64,000 bases of DNA from Candidatus Spyradosoma sp. (GTDB lineage: Bacteria; Verrucomicrobiota; Verrucomicrobiia; Opitutales; UBA953): positions 20,919 to 84,918 of the forward strand of contig JBJEVQ010000009.1 in NCBI GenBank assembly GCA_051884495.1, in the 5' to 3' direction. Of this stretch, positions 1-8,898 are shown piece after piece. Under the pieces are notes generated by a model that ran no database searches, was not told the DNA's origin, and saw only the letters and a program-made list of their open reading frames with translations. The stretch's first letter is position 1; every line of letters starts with the position of its first letter. The position numbers and the translations under genes were made by a program.

Positions 1-1442
1 TCGCGGAAAACTTCCGCTTCTACCTGCAGGGTTTTTCGGAAAACGTCATCGACATCATCCAAAAATTCAATTTCGACAACGAAATCACCAAGCTCGCCGA
101 CAACGGCATCCTCTTCAGCGTCATCGACGAATTCTGCACGAAAAAAGCCTACCTCGGCGCCGACGCCGTTTCCGCCGTGGACATGGGCTACGTCTTCGAA
201 GAGCTCGTCCGCAAATTCTCCGAGAGCTACGACGAACACGCGGGAGCGCATTTCACCGCCCGCGACATCATCTACATGATGGCGGAACTCCTCGTCGCGC
301 CGAACAAAGCCGAGCTCCGGAAAAACGGAATCACCGCCATGCTCTACGACATGGCGATGGGCACGAGCCAGATGCTCGACTGCCTCGCCGAAAAGCTCCT
401 CGAAATCGACCCCGAAGCCGACCTGCACTTCTTCGGGCAGGAGCTCAACGAACAGACCTTCGCCATCGCCAAGGCCAACATGCTCATCCGCGGCGAACAC
501 GCCGACAACATGAAGCACGGCAACACGCTTTCCGACGACAAGTTCGGCGGCTACCTCTTCGACTACGTCATCTCCAATCCGCCTTTCGGCATCGAATGGA
601 AAAACGAGAAAAAAGCCGTGGAGGCGGAAGCGCGCCAAGGCGACGCCGGACGTTTCGGCGCCGGGCTTCCCTCCGTCGGCGACAGTCAGCAGCTTTTCCT
701 GCTCAACGGCGTCGCCAAGCTCAAAGACTCCGGGCGCATGGCGATCATTCAGAACGGCTCTCCGCTCTTCAAGGGCGACGCCGGATCCGGCGAAAGCGAA
801 ATCCGCGGCTTTCTCCTCGAAAACGACTGGCTCGAGGCCGTCGTTCAGCTTCCGAACGACATGTTTTACAACACCGGAATCTCCACGTACATTTGGCTGG
901 TCTCCAAGAACAAGGCGCGGGAACGCCGAGGCAAAGTCCAACTCATCGACGCGAGCCGATGCTTCGAGAAACGCCGCAAGAGCCTCGGCAACAAGCGCAA
1001 CGAGTTCACGGAACGCTGCATCGCGCTCGTCGCGAAGGCCTACCTCGAATTCGCCGACGCCGCTTATTCCGAAGCCGGAAAGATCGTCGAAAGCAAAATC
1101 CGCGACAACGACGACTTCAAGTTCACCAAGATCACCGTCGAACGTCCGCTCCGCGACGAAAACGGCGCGCCCGTCTTCAAAAAAGGCAAACCTCAGATCG
1201 AGTCCGACACCGAGTCCGTGCCGTTCAAGGAGGACGTCGGCGCCTACATGCGGAAAAACGTCCTTCCCTACGCGCCCGACGCAAGGATCAATCCCAAGAA
1301 GACCAAAATCGGCTACGAAATCCCCTTTACCCGCGAATTCTACAAATACGTGCCGCCGCGCCCGAGCGCCGAAATCTTCGAGGAGCTCAGACGTCTCGGG
1401 GCGCAGGAAGCGGAGCTCATGAAAAAAATCCTCGGGAAATGA
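1..1442 (+). CDS. hsdM: Type I restriction-modification DNA methyltransferase subunit HsdM (5' end lies outside the window)
   Basis: The frame is open from the window edge (frame 3) to the TGA at 1442. It carries YDMAMGTSQML (SAM motif I-like) and SNPPFGIEW (N6-adenine MTase motif IV). hsdS and hsdR lie in the same operon. Confidence 0.9.
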   Translation, partial: AENFRFYLQGFSENVIDIIQKFNFDNEITKLADNGILFSVIDEFCTKKAYLGADAVSAVDMGYVFEELVRKFSESYDEHAGAHFTARDIIYMMAELLVAPNKAELRKNGITAMLYDMAMGTSQMLDCLAEKLLEIDPEADLHFFGQELNEQTFAIAKANMLIRGEHADNMKHGNTLSDDKFGGYLFDYVISNPPFGIEWKNEKKAVEAEARQGDAGRFGAGLPSVGDSQQLFLLNGVAKLKDSGRMAIIQNGSPLFKGDAGSGESEIRGFLLENDWLEAVVQLPNDMFYNTGISTYIWLVSKNKARERRGKVQLIDASRCFEKRRKSLGNKRNEFTERCIALVAKAYLEFADAAYSEAGKIVESKIRDNDDFKFTKITVERPLRDENGAPVFKKGKPQIESDTESVPFKEDVGAYMRKNVLPYAPDARINPKKTKIGYEIPFTREFYKYVPPRPSAEIFEELRRLGAQEAELMKKILGK

Positions 1443-1500: not shown

Positions 1501-2553
1501 ATGCAACCCGCCACCGACATCTTCCCCGTCCGTTTCCGACAGGCGCGCGAAATCGCCCGACGTTCCCTGCGCGAACTCGCCTCGGAGCTCCACGTCTCTC
1601 ACACGCTCCTCAACCGCTACGAGACCGGCGCCGCGAAGCCGGTCGCGTCCATGCTGCTGAAAATCGCTGACGCGCTCGGAGTCGCCCCGGACTTCTTCTT
1701 CCGAAGAGAACAGCCGGCGCTGCAGGAAATCCGCTTCCGCAAAAAATCCGCCCTCGGCGCGCGCGAGAAGCGCTCCATCGAAGAACGCGCCAAGGATTTC
1801 TTTTCCCGTTATCTCGAAATCGAGCAGATCGCCGCGCACGAAACGCCGCCGTTCCCGCGCTTCGAGGCTTCGCGGGAACGCTCGCCCGAAGCTTGGGCTC
1901 AGCGCCTGCGCGAGGACTGGCAGCTCGGAGACGATCCGATTCCCAACCTGCAGCAGCTTCTCGAAAACAAGGGCGTCAAAATTTTTGAAATCGACACCGA
2001 CAACGAAAAATTCGACGGCTTTTCCGCCGTCTGCGGCGACGCCGCCTTTCTCGTGATCGCCTCCTGGCTCAAAAAAGACCTCCCGCGAAAACGCATGACG
2101 CTCGCCCACGAGCTTGGTCACCTGCTCGTCGCCCAGGACGCGTCTTTCTCCGAGGAGGAGCACGAAGCCTTCGCGGATGCCTTCGCCTCGGCCTTCCTCA
2201 TGCCTCGGGACACTTTCTCCAAAATGTTCGGCTGGCGACGTTCCCGCGTTTCGCTCTCGGAGCTGCTTCCCGTCAAAGCCTATTTCGGCGTTTCGATCGC
2301 GGCGCTCATGTACCGCGCACGCGTGCTCGAGCTCATTTCCGAGTCGTCTTTCCGGCATTTCTGCATTGTCCGCAACAAATGGGGCTGGCGCAAAAAAGAA
2401 CCGGACTGCTATCGCGGCGAAGAAAGCTCTTCCCGCTTCGAACGGCTCGTGAAAAAAAGCGTCCAGGAAGCCGAAATCTCCGAGTCCAAGGGAGCCGCGC
2501 TTCTTGGCGTTCCCCTCGCGAAACTGAGAAAGGATCTCGCGAATGCCGTCTGA
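1501..2553 (+). CDS. XRE-family HTH fused to an ImmA/IrrE-type zinc metallopeptidase (COG2856-like)
   Basis: The N-terminal HTH-like segment is LRELASELHVSHTLLNRYETG. The C-terminal half carries the HEXXH motif LAHELGHLL. Length is 350 aa. Confidence 0.8.
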   Translation: MQPATDIFPVRFRQAREIARRSLRELASELHVSHTLLNRYETGAAKPVASMLLKIADALGVAPDFFFRREQPALQEIRFRKKSALGAREKRSIEERAKDFFSRYLEIEQIAAHETPPFPRFEASRERSPEAWAQRLREDWQLGDDPIPNLQQLLENKGVKIFEIDTDNEKFDGFSAVCGDAAFLVIASWLKKDLPRKRMTLAHELGHLLVAQDASFSEEEHEAFADAFASAFLMPRDTFSKMFGWRRSRVSLSELLPVKAYFGVSIAALMYRARVLELISESSFRHFCIVRNKWGWRKKEPDCYRGEESSSRFERLVKKSVQEAEISESKGAALLGVPLAKLRKDLANAV

Positions 2554-3064
2554 CGAAGACAGCACGTTCTTCATCCACGACGCCTGTCTGCTGATCGATC
2601 TCTGCGCGGGCGGTCTGCTCCCCGCATGGTTCGAGTCCGGGCGCCGCTTCGCCACGACGACGCTCGTCGTCGCCGAAGTGAAGGCGTCCGCGCAAAAAAA
2701 GGCGCTCGCCTCCTTCATCCGCGCGGGAACGCTCGTCGCCGAAGATCCGGAATTCGAAAAATTGCTGCTCGCCGACGGATGGGCGAAAACCCGCCGAGTC
2801 AGCCTCGCCGACGCCTCCGTCGCGCTGCTCGCGCGGGAACGCGGAGGAATTCTGCTTTCCGGAGACGACCGGCTGCGGAAACGCGCAAAGGAAGACGGCG
2901 TCGAAGTGCGCGGTCTCTTTTGGATTCTGGACACGCTCGTCGGAGAAGCCCGAATCTCGGAAAACGCCGCAGTCGGCGCGTTGGACGCGATTCTCGCCGC
3001 GGGAGCCCGGCTTCCGAAGAACGAATGCGAAACCCGCCTCAAGAAATGGAGGACGCAGAAATGA
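2543..3064 (+). CDS. PIN-domain (VapC-like) predicted nuclease
   Basis: The ATG overlaps the upstream gene by 11 nt. Acidic residues are spaced as in PIN folds (FIHDACLLIDL, VVAEV, LADASV, LLSGDDRL). The call rests on motif memory only. Confidence 0.55.
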   Translation: MPSDEDSTFFIHDACLLIDLCAGGLLPAWFESGRRFATTTLVVAEVKASAQKKALASFIRAGTLVAEDPEFEKLLLADGWAKTRRVSLADASVALLARERGGILLSGDDRLRKRAKEDGVEVRGLFWILDTLVGEARISENAAVGALDAILAAGARLPKNECETRLKKWRTQK

Positions 3065-4275
3065 CGCGGCCCGCACGAAAAATGAAGCCTTCCGGAATCC
3101 CGTGGATCGGAGACGTTCCCGCGGACTGGGAAAGTCGGCGCTTCAGACGCGCGGGACGATTCGTCAAAGGGAAATTGCCTTCGAACGACAACTCGAACGC
3201 GGAAGGCCTGCCGATCATCGGAGCTTCCGAAATGAACGGAAAGCCGCCGAGAACGTTCACGACGGACAGCTCTTGCCCGCAGTGCGAAAAGGACGACGTT
3301 CTGATCTTGTGGGACGGCGCGAATGCCGGATTCGTCGCGCAGGGATTCGCGGGAACGCTTTCGTCCACGGTCGTGAAATACCGCTGTGAGATTCCGGAAA
3401 CATGCCCGCGCTACGTTTTCTACCTTCTGAAATATTTTGAAACTTATTTCAGAAACAAGGTGAACGGAACGACGATTCCGCACATGAATCCGGCGTTCAT
3501 CGACGATTGCGCGCTTCTGCTTCCCCCGACGGAAACGCAAAAGAAAATCGCGGAATTTCTGGACGAAAAGTGCGCGGAAATCGATGCCCTGATCGCGGTG
3601 GAGGAAAAGATGATTGCGGAGCTGAAAAGCTACAAACAGTCCGTCATTACGGAAGCCGTCACGCGCGGCGTCCCTGCCGCCGCGAACGCCTCACGCCCCC
3701 TCAAAGACTCCGGCATTCCCTGGCTCGGCTTCGTTCCCGCCCATTGGGAAATCCTCCCATTAAAACGCTTGTGTAAAATGAATGCAGGAGAGAATTTAAC
3801 CTCGCTTGAGATTGAGAAAGAGGGAGAATTTCCTGTATATGGAGGAAACGGACTTCGTGGTTTTTATAAGAAATATAATTGTTCGGGCGAGTATATCCTT
3901 GTAGGCCGTCAAGGCGCGCTAGCTGGAAATATTCACAGGGTTTGCGGATCTTTTTGGGCAACAGATCACGCTCTCATAACACGTTGCTCGGGGCTGACTA
4001 ATATTCCATACCTTTCATATTTGCTGGAGGCAATGAATCTGAATCAGTATGCATTGCAAACAGCCGCGCAACCAGGATTGTCTGTAGGCTTGGTTCAGTC
4101 GTTGTTCACAACTGTCCCACCTCTTTCGGAGCAACAAGAAATCGTCGTCTTTCTCGATTCAAAAACCAAAAAAGTCGATTCTATGATTTCTCTCAAACAA
4201 GAGAAAATCACCTCTTTGCGAAATTACAAAAAATCCATTATTTTTGAGCATGTCTCCGGAAAGAAAGAAGTTTAA
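3061..4275 (+). CDS. hsdS: Type I R-M specificity subunit HsdS (start chosen at the ATGA overlap with the upstream stop)
   Basis: Two target-recognition halves each open with IPW(I/L)G.VPA.WE. They are separated by, and followed by, conserved helices (KMIAELKSYKQSVITEAVTRG; KITSLRNYKKSIIFEHVSG). The gene sits between hsdM and hsdR. Confidence 0.85.
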   Translation: MTRPARKMKPSGIPWIGDVPADWESRRFRRAGRFVKGKLPSNDNSNAEGLPIIGASEMNGKPPRTFTTDSSCPQCEKDDVLILWDGANAGFVAQGFAGTLSSTVVKYRCEIPETCPRYVFYLLKYFETYFRNKVNGTTIPHMNPAFIDDCALLLPPTETQKKIAEFLDEKCAEIDALIAVEEKMIAELKSYKQSVITEAVTRGVPAAANASRPLKDSGIPWLGFVPAHWEILPLKRLCKMNAGENLTSLEIEKEGEFPVYGGNGLRGFYKKYNCSGEYILVGRQGALAGNIHRVCGSFWATDHALITRCSGLTNIPYLSYLLEAMNLNQYALQTAAQPGLSVGLVQSLFTTVPPLSEQQEIVVFLDSKTKKVDSMISLKQEKITSLRNYKKSIIFEHVSGKKEV

Positions 4276-5690
4276 TTTATGACAGAGGATACCAAAAATA
4301 AGATTTTAAGCACTATTGAAAAAATCAGAAATCTTGATATTCAGAAGTGCCTTTCTCGAAATCTGCCTCCCAGTCAATCATTGGAAGACAGGAAAATCTG
4401 GGTTTTCAGCGGTGTCACGATTATTCCCGTAATCGAACGGGCGATGAAACAAATGGAGGCGTTTTTAAATGGAGACGAATATCCTGTTCATCTTAATACG
4501 AGTTTGGATTTTAGCCAAACTCCCATTGAAGCTTCGTTTTCCGCTTTATTATCTGCACTTGAAGCCGGAAATCATACTCGCCTCGGTCCATATCTACAGG
4601 CGATAATTAACTATGAAATCTTTCACGGAATTTGGGATCGAGGACGTGTAAATCTATTTTCTGTTGATGAGATAAACCTTGCGAACAAGAAATCTGAGTT
4701 AGAATCTTTGTTCTCCAAATTAAGTGAGGCTAAGGGTGCCTTTGAAAATCGCCTTAAACAACTTGACAATGAGCTTTTAGAAAAAAAGAATGCTCTTGAT
4801 ACAATTTCCGCTAACAAGACAAATTCGTCTAACGAGTTATCCCAAATCCGAGGGATAATTGCTGACGCGAACAAGGAAATTCAAAAGCAAAAGAATGATT
4901 TTACATATCTTTACGCGCAAGTAGAACAAAAAGAAAAGGATTTGACTAATTTTTTAATAGCGTCAAAAACGGCGCAAGAAATGGTTGAAAACCAAATTAA
5001 ATCCGCTCAAGAATCCATTGGGATATTAAAGGCGAATATTGATGAAGTTGAAAAACATAAATCGGAATTTGAAGGGTATAAAAAAGAAGCTGCGGAACAG
5101 GTTGCCTTAATCGCGAGCGCTGGATTGTCTGGATCATTTAAGCGTCGAGCTAACCGAATAGGGATTAACGTCATCGTTTGGTTCGTAGCAATTATTGCGG
5201 GTCTGATTGCTTCGGGCTATTGGTTGTGGTTTGCATTTACGCTTCTTCCCAATTTCATCGGAAATGGAATCGCAATAGATCTGACCTCCACATTGCTTTT
5301 CGTCGCGACATCCTTTGCGAAAATCTTTCCTGTCTATCTTGGAATGTCATTCATTTTTAATCAGTATACAAGGGAGCGTAAAACACAAGAGGCATACGAG
5401 TTCAAGGCTGCTGTCTCCGCGACCATCAAATCGTATTCAGATCAATTAGTCGCTCAAAGATATGCTCTTACAATCAACGACTTCTCAAATAATGGGAAAC
5501 CTGATACTGCCGCATGGGAAAAATATGTCGTTGAGCGCGACAAATATCGACGAGAGCTTATTCAAACCACTGTTTTAGGTCTCTACAAAGACATTGATAT
5601 AGAGGAAAAGCAATCTATGCCGTCTAATGGGAAAAACCTGAATATGAACGCGCTGAAGCAGGTCGCGGAAATCATAAAAAATCTGAAGTC
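3775..5690. other. Low-GC compositional island (about 35-40% GC against about 68% in the flanks) covering the second half of hsdS and the next gene
   Basis: A hand count of 3781-3840 gives 23/60 G+C, whereas 3661-3720 is above 70%. Composition returns to high GC exactly at the hsdR start near 5691. Confidence 0.75.
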
Positions 5691-5694
5691 GTGA
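4279..5694 (+). CDS. Hypothetical coiled-coil protein with two transmembrane helices (family not recognised)
   Basis: This is a 471-aa ORF. Its ATG lies 4 nt after the hsdS stop and its stop overlaps the hsdR GTG. A heptad-rich K/E/Q/L region spans about aa 133-275. Hydrophobic helices occur at about aa 296-360 (INVIVWFVAIIAGLIASGYWLWFAF; LTSTLLFVATSFAKIFPVYLGMSFIF). Confidence 0.6.
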   Translation: MTEDTKNKILSTIEKIRNLDIQKCLSRNLPPSQSLEDRKIWVFSGVTIIPVIERAMKQMEAFLNGDEYPVHLNTSLDFSQTPIEASFSALLSALEAGNHTRLGPYLQAIINYEIFHGIWDRGRVNLFSVDEINLANKKSELESLFSKLSEAKGAFENRLKQLDNELLEKKNALDTISANKTNSSNELSQIRGIIADANKEIQKQKNDFTYLYAQVEQKEKDLTNFLIASKTAQEMVENQIKSAQESIGILKANIDEVEKHKSEFEGYKKEAAEQVALIASAGLSGSFKRRANRIGINVIVWFVAIIAGLIASGYWLWFAFTLLPNFIGNGIAIDLTSTLLFVATSFAKIFPVYLGMSFIFNQYTRERKTQEAYEFKAAVSATIKSYSDQLVAQRYALTINDFSNNGKPDTAAWEKYVVERDKYRRELIQTTVLGLYKDIDIEEKQSMPSNGKNLNMNALKQVAEIIKNLKS

Positions 5695-8600
5695 CGTACA
5701 TGGATACTACGGAAAAGCGGTTTGAGAGCGACATTGAGGCGTTTCTGCTGAGCGAGGCGGGCGGCTACGCCAAGGGCTGCCGGGAAACTTACGACAAGGC
5801 GCGCGCGATCGACATGTCGGTGATGCAGGCGTTCATCGGGAAGACGCAGCCGAAGGCGTGGGCGCGTTTCTGCCGGGTTTACGGGAACGACGCGGAGGCG
5901 CAGCTCTACAAGACGTTTCAGCGCAACGTGGACGAGCACGGCCTGATTCACGTGCTGCGCAACGGCGTGAAGGACCGCGGGATCGCGCTGCGTTTCTGCT
6001 ATTTCGCGCCCGCGTCGGATCTGAACGCGGAGCTGGTCGAAAAATACGAGGCGAACATTCTGACGGAGCGTCGGCAGTTCCATTATTCGACGAGCAACGA
6101 AAATTCGATCGATATGGTGCTTTCACTGAACGGTGTTCCCGTGGTCGCGCTCGAACTGAAGAATCAGCTCAAGGGGCAATCGACGGCGGATTCGATGCGG
6201 CAATACCGGGAAGACCGCGACCCGCGGGAGCTGATCTTCAATTTCAACAAGCGCGTTCTCGTCTGCTTCGGGGCGGACTTGCGCGACGTGGTGATGACGA
6301 CCCGGCTCGACGGGGCGCGGACGCGCTTTCTGCCGTTCAACCAGGGGAGCAACGGAGCCGGGAACGTGGGCGACGGCGGGAATCCGGAAAATCCGGACGG
6401 CTATCCGACGGCGTATCTGTGGGAACGCGTGCTGCGGCGCGAAAATCTGCTGGCGCTGCTGCAGCATTACGTTTCGCTGCAGACGACGGAGACGCTCGCG
6501 CTCGAGAACGGACGGCAGGTCAAGAAGGCTTCGACGAAGCTGATCTTCCCGCGCTATCATCAGCTGGACGTCGTGGAAAAGCTGGTCGCGGACACGCGGG
6601 AACGCGGCGCGGGCAGGAACTATCTGATCCAGCATTCGGCGGGGAGCGGAAAATCGAACTCGATCGCGTGGCTGACGTATCGGCTCGCGTCGCTGCACGA
6701 CGCGTCGCGGGAGAGCGTTTTCCGGACGGTGTTCGTCGTGACGGACAGGCGCGTTCTGAACGCGCAGCTGCGGGAGACGATTCTGAGCTTCGAGCACAGC
6801 GCCGGTCAGATCGAGACGGTGACGGACAAGGACAATTCCTCCAAGCTCCGTGACGCGATCAACGACGGGAAGCGGATCGTCATCACGACGCTTCACCGCT
6901 TTCCGCTCGTCTATAGGGAAATCGACGCGCACGCGGGGAAGAACTTCGCGGTCATCGTCGACGAGGCGCACAGCTCCCAGACGGGCAAGAGCGCGCAGAA
7001 GCTGAAGACGGCGCTCGCGGACACGGAAAGCGCGCTGAAGGAATGGGCGGAGCTCGAGGGCAAGGAGGAAGCGGCGCTCAAGGACGAAATGGACGTGCTC
7101 TCGGAAACGCTGCTTTCGCAGGGGCAGCACGCGAATCTTTCGTTCTACGCGTTCACGGCGACGCCGAAGCCGAAGACGCTGGAGATTTTCGGCGAGAAGC
7201 GCGGGGACGGCTCTTTCGACGCGTTCCACCATTACTCGATGCGGCAGGCGATCGACGAAGGCTTCATCGAGGACGTGCTGAGGTTTTACACGACTTACGA
7301 GACGTCCTACGAAATCGGCAAAATCAGCGAAGACAATCCCGAATACGAGGAGCCGCCGGCGACGAAGGCGATCAGGGCCTATCACGACGGGCACGGTTTC
7401 GTGATCGATCAGAAGGCGGCGATCATGACGGAGAAGTTCCGCGAGATCACGCTGAACAGGATCGGCGGCAGGGCGAAGGCGATGATCGTGTCCCCGTCGC
7501 GCGCGCACGCGGTCCGGTATTTTTTCGCGATAAAGAAATACTGCGCCGAGCGCGGTTATGTGGACGTGAGGCCGCTCGTCGCGTTTTCGGGAAAAGTGAA
7601 ATACGACGGCAGGGAATGGACGGAGCCGGAGCTGAACTCCGCGGGAACGCTGAGGATTTCCGAAGCGCAGCTGCCGCTGTATTTCGGAAGCGAGATGTTC
7701 AACCTGCTGATCGTCGCGGAAAAATACCAGACGGGCTTCGACGAGCCGTTGCTGCACACGATGTTCGTGGACAAGAAGCTGTCCGGCGTGAAGGCTGTTC
7801 AGACGCTCTCCCGGCTGAATCGGCAGTGCCCGGGCAAAATCGACACTTACGTCTTCGATTTCGCGAACTCGAACGAGGACATCGCCCGCGCGTTCAAGCC
7901 GTTTTACGAGGACACGTTTTTGGAAAAGGCGATCGACGTGAACGACGTGTACACGTTTTGGGCGGAGCTGGAAAAAATGCGTCTCTGGTCGCGGGAGGAC
8001 GAAGACAAAGTCTATGCCGTCTATTCCGCCGCCGAACAGAGTCGGACCGCTCTGGGAAAAATCTCGAGCGCGCTCGTTCCCGCGACTTCCGCCTATAATC
8101 GGCTCTCGGAGGAAAACAGGTTCAAGGCGCGCGCGCTGATCAAGAATTTCTGCCGCTTTTATGCCTACGTCACGCAGATCGTGCGCACGTTCGACGCGGA
8201 GCTCCACAAGAGCTACATTTTCGCGGAAATCTTTTATCGCTTTCTGCCGAAAAGCGCTCACGAGAAGGTCGTTCTCGGCGACAAGATCGCGCTCGTCAGC
8301 AACAAGCTGACGGAAACGTTCAGCGGCGCGATCGCGCTCGCGCCGGAAAAGGCGGACAAGACGTTCCCGCCGGAGGCTCCGCGGAGAAAGCCCGCGAAGC
8401 CGACGCGGACTTTCGACACGCTCAAGAACATCATCGACAAGATCAATCTGATGTATCAGGGCGATTTTTCGGAGGCGGACCGCGTCATCGTCGAAGAGAT
8501 ATTCGATCGGCTGCAGGCGCGCCAGAAGCAGCTTTCGAAGCTCGCGAAGGCTTCGACTCCGGAGATGTTCGCGAAGAATCTTTTCCCGGCGGAATTCAAC

Positions 8601-8753
8601 AAGGTGGCGAACGAGTGCTACAATCGACGAATGGACGCTTTCGCCAAGCTTTTTGAAAACGCGGATTTTTACAGGCACGTGATGGCGGAGATGGGCGCGG
8701 CGCTCTACGCCGACCTGCGCAACCGGCGAGAAGACGCGAAGCGGAAGGAGTGA
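5691..8753 (+). CDS. hsdR: Type I restriction enzyme R subunit HsdR (an alternative ATG start lies at 5700)
   Basis: 1020 aa with SF2 helicase motifs QHSAGSGKS (Walker A) and VDEAHSSQ (DEAH box). The N-terminal region looks nuclease-like. It is the last gene of the hsd operon. Confidence 0.9.
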   Translation: MTYMDTTEKRFESDIEAFLLSEAGGYAKGCRETYDKARAIDMSVMQAFIGKTQPKAWARFCRVYGNDAEAQLYKTFQRNVDEHGLIHVLRNGVKDRGIALRFCYFAPASDLNAELVEKYEANILTERRQFHYSTSNENSIDMVLSLNGVPVVALELKNQLKGQSTADSMRQYREDRDPRELIFNFNKRVLVCFGADLRDVVMTTRLDGARTRFLPFNQGSNGAGNVGDGGNPENPDGYPTAYLWERVLRRENLLALLQHYVSLQTTETLALENGRQVKKASTKLIFPRYHQLDVVEKLVADTRERGAGRNYLIQHSAGSGKSNSIAWLTYRLASLHDASRESVFRTVFVVTDRRVLNAQLRETILSFEHSAGQIETVTDKDNSSKLRDAINDGKRIVITTLHRFPLVYREIDAHAGKNFAVIVDEAHSSQTGKSAQKLKTALADTESALKEWAELEGKEEAALKDEMDVLSETLLSQGQHANLSFYAFTATPKPKTLEIFGEKRGDGSFDAFHHYSMRQAIDEGFIEDVLRFYTTYETSYEIGKISEDNPEYEEPPATKAIRAYHDGHGFVIDQKAAIMTEKFREITLNRIGGRAKAMIVSPSRAHAVRYFFAIKKYCAERGYVDVRPLVAFSGKVKYDGREWTEPELNSAGTLRISEAQLPLYFGSEMFNLLIVAEKYQTGFDEPLLHTMFVDKKLSGVKAVQTLSRLNRQCPGKIDTYVFDFANSNEDIARAFKPFYEDTFLEKAIDVNDVYTFWAELEKMRLWSREDEDKVYAVYSAAEQSRTALGKISSALVPATSAYNRLSEENRFKARALIKNFCRFYAYVTQIVRTFDAELHKSYIFAEIFYRFLPKSAHEKVVLGDKIALVSNKLTETFSGAIALAPEKADKTFPPEAPRRKPAKPTRTFDTLKNIIDKINLMYQGDFSEADRVIVEEIFDRLQARQKQLSKLAKASTPEMFAKNLFPAEFNKVANECYNRRMDAFAKLFENADFYRHVMAEMGAALYADLRNRREDAKRKE

Positions 8754-8898
8754 CGCGGCACCGGGTTTCACGTTCCCGGGAACGGCGTGCCTTCGCGTTC
8801 CCGCGCGCCTTTGCGCTTGCGCCCGCGGGCGCGGCGGCGGAAACTTGGAGACTTTCCACGGCGAACAACATCATTCACGACAACGTAATTAAAATCAC

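Follow-up and report, generated by a model that had tools for sequence, protein, structure and literature searches.

What does a membrane protein gene do between hsdS and hsdR of a type I restriction–modification (R-M) operon, and does it need that operon in order to work? The question is raised by a stretch of 64,000 nucleotides (nt) from Candidatus Spyradosoma sp. (contig JBJEVQ010000009.1, positions 20,919 to 84,918, assembly GCA_051884495.1), hereafter the window, in which an open reading frame (ORF) of 471 amino acids (aa), hereafter the guest, is tightly packed between the two genes. An earlier note, made from the sequence alone, had called it an orphan and had proposed a suicide or abortive-infection effector held latent by the R-M complex. 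Profile searches place the guest in a large, unnamed protein family that has no recognised relative in curated libraries. The reading that we prefer, tentatively, is that this family consists of single-gene, horizontally mobile modules acting at the inner membrane in defence against phages or mobile elements.

Position and predicted architecture of the guest

The guest ORF runs on the plus strand from an ATG at 4279 to a TGA at 5692-5694. A 3-nt spacer (TTT) separates it from the hsdS stop codon (TAA, 4273-4275), its ATG lying 4 nt past the last base of the stop; these coordinates and the neighbours identified by Pfam agree with the earlier description, and the slot is indeed the one used by PrrC. 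The start codon is supported by the N-terminus M-T-E, which is invariant in 8 close homologues. Coupling to hsdR, claimed as well, stood in part: a GTG at 5691 does overlap the guest TGA (GTGA), whereas the gene calls of four sister loci start HsdR at an ATG matching window position 5700 (1017 aa). The hsdR start is thus GTG 5691 or, more likely, ATG 5700, and the junction is a 4-nt overlap or a 5-nt gap, tight in both cases. The guest and its parts are as follows.

4279..5694, + strand: guest gene ('FAM'), encoding a 471-aa membrane-anchored coiled-coil protein (ORF, homologues, family profile, AlphaFold2 (AF2) model)
4279..4662, + strand: N-terminal cytoplasmic helical domain (N-domain), aa 1-128, variable and acidic, a putative sensor (AF2, conservation)
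4663..5157, + strand: coiled-coil stalk, aa 129-275, and conserved segment before the first transmembrane (TM) helix, aa 276-293 (AF2, family alignment)
5158..5361, + strand: predicted membrane hairpin with TM1 (aa 294-322), outer loop (aa 323-334) and TM2 (aa 335-361) (hydropathy, charges, AF2)
5362..5463, + strand: juxtamembrane helix following TM2, aa 362-395, where the family is most conserved (mean pairwise identity)
5464..5691, + strand: C-terminal helical tail, aa 396-471 (AF2 helices 410-436 and 457-470)

The AF2 model, a monomer built from an alignment of 106 sequences, has a mean predicted local distance difference test (pLDDT) score of 84.8 and a predicted template modelling (pTM) score of 0.42; it replaced a model from only 8 close homologues, which gave a pLDDT of 58. 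It is entirely helical in outline: the N-domain helices lie within aa 3-115 (aa 3-18, 21-26, 45-64, 83-96 and 99-115; pLDDT about 90) and are followed by one continuous helix (aa 129-321), a loop (322-334), a helix (335-394) and two tail helices (410-436 and 457-470). The continuous helix, of about 190 residues, is a coiled coil that runs uninterrupted into TM1. In the Kyte-Doolittle hydropathy profile, TM1 (about aa 294-322) gives a strong signal and TM2 (about aa 335-361) a weaker one. The N-domain, the coiled coil and the two hydrophobic helices (aa 296-360, nt 5161-5360) reported from the sequence are thus matched by hydropathy and AF2, and two TM segments are predicted, as for a membrane protein. 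Because basic residues flank the hairpin (KRR before TM1, RERK after TM2) and none occurs in the loop between the helices, the predicted topology has both termini in the cytoplasm. The outer loop takes a 34-aa polar insertion in the homologue P0007.

Conservation is distributed unevenly along the protein. Mean pairwise identity is 61% in the post-TM2 helix, 41% in the pre-TM1 segment, 33% in TM2 and 26% in TM1, falling to 23% in the N-domain (median net charge -4.5 over the family), 19% in the stalk and 9% in the outer loop. The pre-TM1 segment carries the family motif L-x-G-x-x-A-D-x-S-L-G-x-T-F-x-x-R, in which L283, F287 and R290 are nearly invariant, and K348 and P351 of TM2 are nearly invariant too. 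The segment directly after TM2, which had been taken for a mere charged tail, is the best-conserved part of the protein (Q-Y-x-K-E-R-x-x-Q-E-E-Y-A-F-K-x-A-V-A-x-T-I-x-A-Y, with R367 and E371 invariant across the 106 sequences). In the tail proper, conservation is confined to close relatives and pLDDT is lower at aa 445-455.

The outline resembles that of two known kinds of membrane protein. SLATT (SMODS/SLOG-associated 2TM) proteins, effectors in conflict systems, likewise have a two-helix membrane hairpin flanked by cytoplasmic helices; unlike the guest, they have neither a stalk of about 150 residues nor the guest N-domain. Five SLATT proteins appear among the weak Foldseek matches of the AF2 model in BFVD (E 0.37-1.6, TM-scores 0.10-0.23, not significant), and the Pfam models SLATT_1-6/DUF4231 match neither the 106 family members at E<=0.01 nor isolated hairpins at E<=10. 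We therefore rejected membership in SLATT and keep the likeness as one of architecture. ZorA of the Zorya system is a MotA/ExbB-type, membrane-anchored stator subunit with a long cytoplasmic coiled-coil tail, so that it shares with the guest a membrane anchor and a very long cytoplasmic helical stalk. In contrast to the guest, which has only a hairpin, no partner genes and a stalk N-terminal to the membrane segment, ZorA has multiple TM helices and works with ZorB, C and D; the weak PADLOC ZorA3 matches cover only the coiled-coil region of one relative.

Extent of the family and its genomic contexts

The guest is not the orphan that it had seemed: an exhaustive profile search recovered 629 cluster representatives at E<=1e-3, of which 201 reach E<=1e-10; almost all are 430-470 aa long and align over profile positions 1-390. 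Exhaustive searching was needed because word-index searches, with the full-length protein or with a profile, were swamped by coiled-coil words and returned 7-8 matches; the relatives found in this way numbered only seven (49-96% identity). That no family was recognisable at first sight is confirmed, since Pfam, NCBIfam, PADLOC and PHROGs gave nothing above sub-threshold coiled-coil matches to the stalk (window protein; 106 and 10 relatives, respectively), and isolated N-domains and hairpin regions had no Pfam match even at E<=10. Searches of PDB sequences with whole, N-domain and hairpin profiles returned coiled coils or nothing, and Foldseek with the AF2 model found nothing below E 0.27 in PDB or 0.016 in BFVD. 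No NTPase, nuclease or PrrC/RloC model of Pfam, NCBIfam or PADLOC matched the guest. PADLOC-DB v2.0.0, a release that covers the embedded candidates described by Payne et al. (bioRxiv 10.1101/2024.01.29.577857), gave no significant match outside the coiled coil, its HEC and PDC models included, for the window protein and 12 relatives.

Several apparent matches were rejected. Those to LmuB, JetC, DruC, ZorA and PbeC in PADLOC (E 6e-9 to 1e-2) align almost entirely to the stalk; SMC/Rad50, LmuB, JetC and tape-measure matches all fall on the stalk, below thresholds; and ATG17_like (PF04108) scored 28.9 bits against a cut-off of 43, again on the stalk only. PF28019, a precomputed label of two relatives, resolves to HmpF, which we take to be a coiled-coil protein family, and was treated as compositional coiled-coil noise rather than as the family's entry. 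Public names of family members are 'hypothetical protein' or 'coiled-coil domain-containing protein', a search of the literature library found no paper on the family or on accession WP_001030448, and blastn found no homologue in E. coli genomes. The guest family itself thus appears undescribed.

To map its contexts we scanned one genome per species with a single peptide pattern drawn from the family-wide alignment, patterns from the 8-sequence alignment having yielded no confirmed locus. This matched 109 species, from which 80 loci were fetched, 72 of them with upstream sequence. The hosts are mostly Bacteroidota, together with Enterobacter, Pantoea, Shewanella, Pseudoalteromonas, Luteolibacter and others, including Gammaproteobacteria and Verrucomicrobiota.

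Three kinds of methylation-based defence operon recur as hosts. Iterative searching with the Hsd proteins of the window placed an hsdS immediately 5' of the family gene in 21 of the 72 loci, on the same strand and at a distance of 1-25 nt, in three layouts: M-S-guest-R (the window lineage), S'-M-S-guest-(1-3 variable genes)-R, and R-M-S-guest. Five other loci have a type IIG restriction endonuclease-methyltransferase immediately 5' (PADLOC REase_MTase_IIG 2e-284; Pfam Eco57I, MmeI_Mtase and TaqI_C), with the family gene about 40 nt behind it. The third host is a bacteriophage exclusion system of type 1 (BREX-1) on 24 Acinetobacter plasmids, including p3ABAYE, in which the member WP_001030448.1 (E 1e-134 against the family hidden Markov model) lies between pglX and pglZ with a 4-nt overlap on each side. 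Acinetobacter BREX variants differ by the gene in this pglX-pglZ slot, which in other plasmids holds a DUF262/GmrSD-type nuclease (PMC10117892). The position right after hsdS, a type IIG gene or pglX is a recurrent guest slot behind a target-recognition or methylase gene.

Family members are also found outside such operons. An isolated temperate Riemerella phage carries one (E 5e-80) beside helix-turn-helix (HTH) and integrase genes, in its lysogeny module, and 19 contigs in IMG/VR encode relatives. Solo copies, which occur in low-GC islets, account for 43 of the 79 full-length copies with upstream information; they have an upstream intergenic region of their own, with a median gap of 150 nt in the 49 solo genome loci that were measured. 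Among the genes nearest to them are integrases (6), Shedu (2), GmrSD (2), Fic (2) and an AAA_15 ATPase, as well as numerous housekeeping genes. Clustering of the neighbours within 6 kb found no conserved partner gene apart from the hsd genes and no mobility gene travelling with the family gene. The family gene is therefore one that lies inside multi-gene defence operons and has both embedded and non-embedded homologues, and the defence neighbourhoods on which the earlier proposal depended do exist (type I, type IIG, BREX-1, a prophage lysogeny module, GmrSD, Shedu and integrases).

The family gene differs from its surroundings in composition, its GC content being below that of the rest of the locus in 96% of the 72 loci. 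In the window, the GC content at third codon positions of the guest is 0.38, compared with 0.81 in hsdM and 0.83 in hsdR. Copies behind type I hsdS genes and copies behind type IIG enzymes share 80-85% protein identity, and their DNA homology (75-86% nucleotide identity) starts and stops within 1-20 nt of the ORF ends.

Two such type I/type IIG comparisons can be described individually. Locus L014 (10000-11363), aligned with L013 (6029-7392) and L077 (10000-11364), has 84-86% DNA homology from 1-2 nt before the start codon to the stop; L017 and L019 form another pair. In neither comparison is anything common outside the guest ORF.

In the window lineage, the guest is co-linear with hsdM and hsdR across loci whose core genes are 80-85% identical, and by these alignments it is an old resident of the operon.

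A finer record of exchange comes from five near-identical sister operons (the window, L001, L004, L113 and L115; one sister contig is from assembly GCA_900771275.1). Their hsdM, rmrA, PIN and hsdR genes share 97-99% nucleotide identity, compared with only 77-87% for the guest. Sliding windows and a segment matrix resolve the guest into a mosaic with two alleles of the N-domain, which is a separate recombination segment, three of the first stalk segment, two main ones of the distal stalk and TM region, and a conserved tail. The hsdS gene varies as well, with 2 alleles of the first target-recognition domain (TRD1, about 3140-3520) and 3 of the second (TRD2, about 3750-4150) across the five loci; since both are swapped, the sister strains should differ in type I specificity. 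Between the window and L004, one exchange tract stretches from TRD2 of hsdS as far as about nt 5400 and ends within the invariant post-TM2 helix. The variable block is delimited as follows.

3750..5400, + strand: low-GC, mosaic, hypervariable tract comprising hsdS TRD2 and most of the guest (GC 0.35-0.45 compared with about 0.60 in the flanks)

Within it, nucleotide identity to the sister operons falls from 97-100% to 30-80%. In a type I operon, the variable block can thus take in an adjacent guest gene as well as the recognition domains of hsdS. The window and L113 have the same guest allele (96%) and unrelated TRD2 sequences. We had considered that the guest N-domain might travel with TRD2, which would suggest contact between them; this was rejected, the N-domain allele of the window and L113 being 96% identical and their TRD2 unrelated. 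As judged from the alignments, the hypervariable part of the operon is made up of the hsdS recognition domains and the guest, and the guest is not tied to a particular recognition domain.

Some family genes are broken. Several are split into two ORFs (L053, L062, L075 and L082; L117 7511-8888; L118 7379-8852; the protein P0210 belongs to the disrupted set), and one is fused to fragments of an IS3-type transposase; these look like frameshifted or insertion sequence (IS)-disrupted copies. 'Short forms' lacking the N-domain were rejected as real variants, because the two examined follow ORFs of 177 and 201 aa and are probably split genes, and another is an IS chimera.

Candidate roles of the guest

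A role in conflict with phages or mobile elements is suggested by the recurrence of strand-specific, tight placement in three kinds of defence operon. The copy in a prophage, the foreign composition, the shuffled alleles and the split or IS-broken copies point the same way, and the last would fit a costly gene. It is an accepted line of reasoning that a gene embedded in an R-M or BREX locus is usually a defence gene (Payne et al., bioRxiv 10.1101/2024.01.29.577857; TgvAB, PMC11411939). The guest resembles TgvAB of the V. cholerae type I locus, BrxU/DUF262 of BREX and the HEC and PDC candidates of PADLOC in lying inside a methylation-based defence operon and having relatives that are not embedded; it differs from them in being a membrane protein of a family without a model, whereas they are nucleases and NTPases of known families. 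An autonomous module is favoured over a dedicated type I partner because solo copies exist and because the ORF hops precisely between unrelated hosts; the pairing of one guest allele with different hsdS TRD2 alleles argues in the same direction.

If the family does consist of autonomous membrane-acting modules, the guest protein would form a membrane-anchored coiled-coil oligomer whose hypervariable N-domain and stalk sense a cue of infection. The conserved juxtamembrane segments would normally lock the hairpins; upon activation these would rearrange and make the membrane leaky, leading to growth arrest or abortive infection, or they might instead block an early, membrane-associated step of infection. 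The guest would work alone, and by being embedded in an R-M operon it would be expressed and transferred together with a complementary first-line defence, as other embedded defence genes are. Should it be a defence gene, a widespread single-gene family (at least 200 clusters at 50% identity), with a membrane-effector architecture that has no known relative, would join the anti-phage repertoire. Its reach extends over Bacteroidota, Proteobacteria (Acinetobacter, Enterobacter, Pantoea), Verrucomicrobiota, plasmids and a phage, and both the BREX-embedded copy of clinically common Acinetobacter plasmids and the solo copy of Enterobacter sp. ECC-175 (WP_395301258.1) offer tractable test beds.

A number of observations weigh against this reading and keep it tentative. 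The case for defence is made by guilt by association and by architecture, sequence-based arguments without homology to a characterised protein. Recognised defence genes are a minority among the nearest neighbours of solo copies, many of which lie next to housekeeping genes (ribonucleotide reductase, tRNA synthetase, peptidase), so that the defence context is weak there; most of the IMG/VR matches lie near contig ends and may belong to host flanks. On the side of the protein, the best-conserved part is the cytoplasmic juxtamembrane helix and not the TM helices, which is unlike a simple pore former, and this helix could be a site of protein-protein interaction. TM2 is only moderately hydrophobic and contains the conserved Lys and Pro, and both the oligomeric state and the pore are conjectures, the AF2 model being a monomer with the pTM given above.

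Placement behind the recognition or methylase gene of three systems raises the question whether the guest acts alone or guards these systems, as PrrC and Ronin do. As a guard, or 'anti-anti-restriction' effector, it would be held inactive by HsdM2S, by the type IIG enzyme or by PglX, or would sense anti-restriction proteins, and its hairpin would kill or arrest the cell when restriction is inhibited. We consider this possible, though rather improbable. It would explain why the guest lies directly behind a TRD- or methylase-bearing gene in three methylation-based defence classes, at distances typical of translational coupling. A hypervariable, mosaic N-domain and stalk would also be expected if this surface came into contact with phage proteins, and DNA mimics of the Ocr type inhibit PglX of BREX as well as type I R-M, the two commonest hosts of the guest. 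Precedents are available in PrrC, whose gene likewise separates hsdS from hsdR in a type I operon (PMC12707154), and in Ronin (RonA with HsdMS). In Ronin, the cell-death effector is the 61-aa RonA with a predicted transmembrane helix, whose lethality is suppressed by HsdMS and triggered by Ocr, ArdA and Aop1 (Silas et al., bioRxiv 10.1101/2023.04.06.535777). Because Ronin already has a membrane effector suppressed by HsdMS, the statement that such a combination had not been described was wrong as a concept; what holds of it is the apparent novelty of the guest protein family.

Neither precedent is a close match. What Ronin and the window have in common is an effector gene, with a product predicted to act at the membrane, in close linkage with type I hsdS and hsdM; by description, the guest is set apart from RonA by its 471 aa, its N-domain, stalk and two TM helices, by the full-length HsdR of its operon and by the occurrence of its family outside type I systems. 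PrrC of EcoprrI, like RloC, would be comparable as a guest backing up restriction from the hsdS-hsdR slot, a resemblance that is positional only: PrrC is a soluble, ABC-ATPase-like anticodon nuclease, whereas the guest is predicted to be all-helical with a TM hairpin. Furthermore, PrrC is almost always embedded (Payne et al., bioRxiv 10.1101/2024.01.29.577857), in contrast to the guest family, about half of which is solo.

These solo copies, and the one in a phage, count against a guard, even though free-standing PARIS guards in trans and solo copies of the guest could do likewise. Near-identical alleles stand behind structurally different hosts with homology ending at the ORF, and the shared allele of the window and L113 next to unrelated TRD2 sequences indicates that the guest is not co-adapted to the specificity domain. 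The acidic N-domain would moreover be unexpected in a binder of acidic DNA mimics, although this is a weak inference. Latency imposed by the R-M complex, as originally put forward, was deduced from position, and the solo copies, the context hopping and the differing TRD2 lean against such a dependence.

A broader version would make the family a second-line sensor-effector for methylation-based immunity in general. Phage anti-restriction factors, or an N6-adenine methylase or TRD in its inhibited state, would be detected by the hypervariable N-domain and stalk; the hairpin would then collapse the membrane potential, and the family would back up type I, type IIG and BREX systems, acting in trans when solo. 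We regard this as improbable; if true, it would amount to a new and widespread anti-anti-restriction system with a new membrane-effector fold.

It is unlikely, though worth weighing, that the gene has no part in defence at all, being a selfish or mobile-element gene (for addiction, exclusion or entry) or an unrelated membrane protein gathering in variable regions, with R-M and BREX hot spots trapping it. Its low GC and ORF-precise mobility, its carriage by mobilizable plasmids and a temperate phage, the integrases among its neighbours and the many solo copies between housekeeping genes would all be in keeping with such an origin. Yet the exact, repeated placement on the same strand (at 1-25 nt from hsdS, some 40 nt behind type IIG genes, overlapping pglX) is hard to obtain by passive trapping. 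Throughout a type I lineage whose hsdM and hsdR genes are now only 80-85% identical, the guest has remained unbroken and has been inherited along with them, and no mobility gene travels with it.

Least likely of all is a non-toxic accessory subunit, a membrane tether or scaffold that places R-M or BREX under the inner membrane where phage DNA enters, or modulates their activity: its close packing against both neighbours in type I and BREX operons, the modelled rigid helix of about 190 residues that would join a cytoplasmic head to the membrane, the strongly conserved juxtamembrane helix as a potential docking site and the reported association of EcoKI with the membrane speak for it, but a copy that stands alone or sits in a phage has nothing to tether, one and the same allele moves among unrelated hosts, the guest is absent from the majority of type I, type IIG and BREX systems, and the position is a guest slot rather than that of a subunit because in Acinetobacter BREX it can hold an unrelated DUF262 gene.

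The host operon and its surroundings

The other genes of the window operon that surround the guest are the following.

1..1442, + strand: hsdM, methylase subunit, cut by the window start (Pfam N6_Mtase 1.7e-55)
3061..4275, + strand: hsdS, specificity subunit, directly upstream of the guest (Pfam Methylase_S 4.6e-26, two stretches)
5691..8753, + strand: hsdR, restriction subunit (Pfam HSDR_N, ResIII/SWI2_SNF2, T1R_D3-like)

By these Pfam assignments, the host locus is a type I R-M system, with HsdM, HsdS with two target-recognition domains and HsdR in one operon. The gene order is the same in the sister loci, and hsdM is complete, at 585 aa, in L001 and L113.

A second pair of guest genes occupies positions 1501-3064, between hsdM and hsdS. 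The first encodes a 350-aa protein with HTH and Peptidase_M78 domains (PADLOC RmrA 3e-62; spr1629-family repressor/antitoxin in NCBIfam), and the second, overlapping it by 11 nt, a 173-aa PIN/DUF3368-like protein. Judged by these matches, the pair looks like a RosmerTA-type toxin-antitoxin defence module embedded in the operon.

A scan of 9.2 kb found no terminator-like site between hsdS, the guest and hsdR. Six of the nine sigma-70-like promoter matches in the same 9.2 kb fall within the AT-rich guest or just upstream of it (4742-4805, 4985-5014 and 4158-4187). This clustering is probably an effect of composition, though some of the matches could be internal promoters driving hsdR.

More distant members of the window lineage have an additional gene between the guest and hsdR (L007 4799-5608 and L010 3499-4311, 269-270 aa; L002 4391-4579, 62 aa), which could be a further guest or a partner. 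The 269-270-aa genes of L007 and L010 have no Pfam or PADLOC match. The Bacteroidota-type type I loci L012-L090 have a short hsdS-like ORF (about 190 aa) just before hsdM, e.g., at 6603-7199 in L012, and Bacteroidota-type type I loci contain a conserved gene of about 235 aa directly after hsdR (cluster 'c3', 16 loci), e.g., at 16662-17372 in L012. The BREX locus of p3ABAYE (L092) is preceded by WYL-domain (BrxR-like) and Fic genes (1315-1827 and 2623-3489) and followed by a very large AAA-domain protein; as annotated from these domains, the region is a plasmid-borne defence island.

The whole window operon also appears to be mobile, because near-identical copies (94-98% identical) lie in different surroundings. 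In L001 and L115, the operon is next to valS, followed by a T5orf172/MUG113 gene, and in L113 and L114 an AAA_15/AAA_21 ATPase and a DUF3226 gene precede it. The homology of the window to L001 ends at 8758, with different genes beyond this point.

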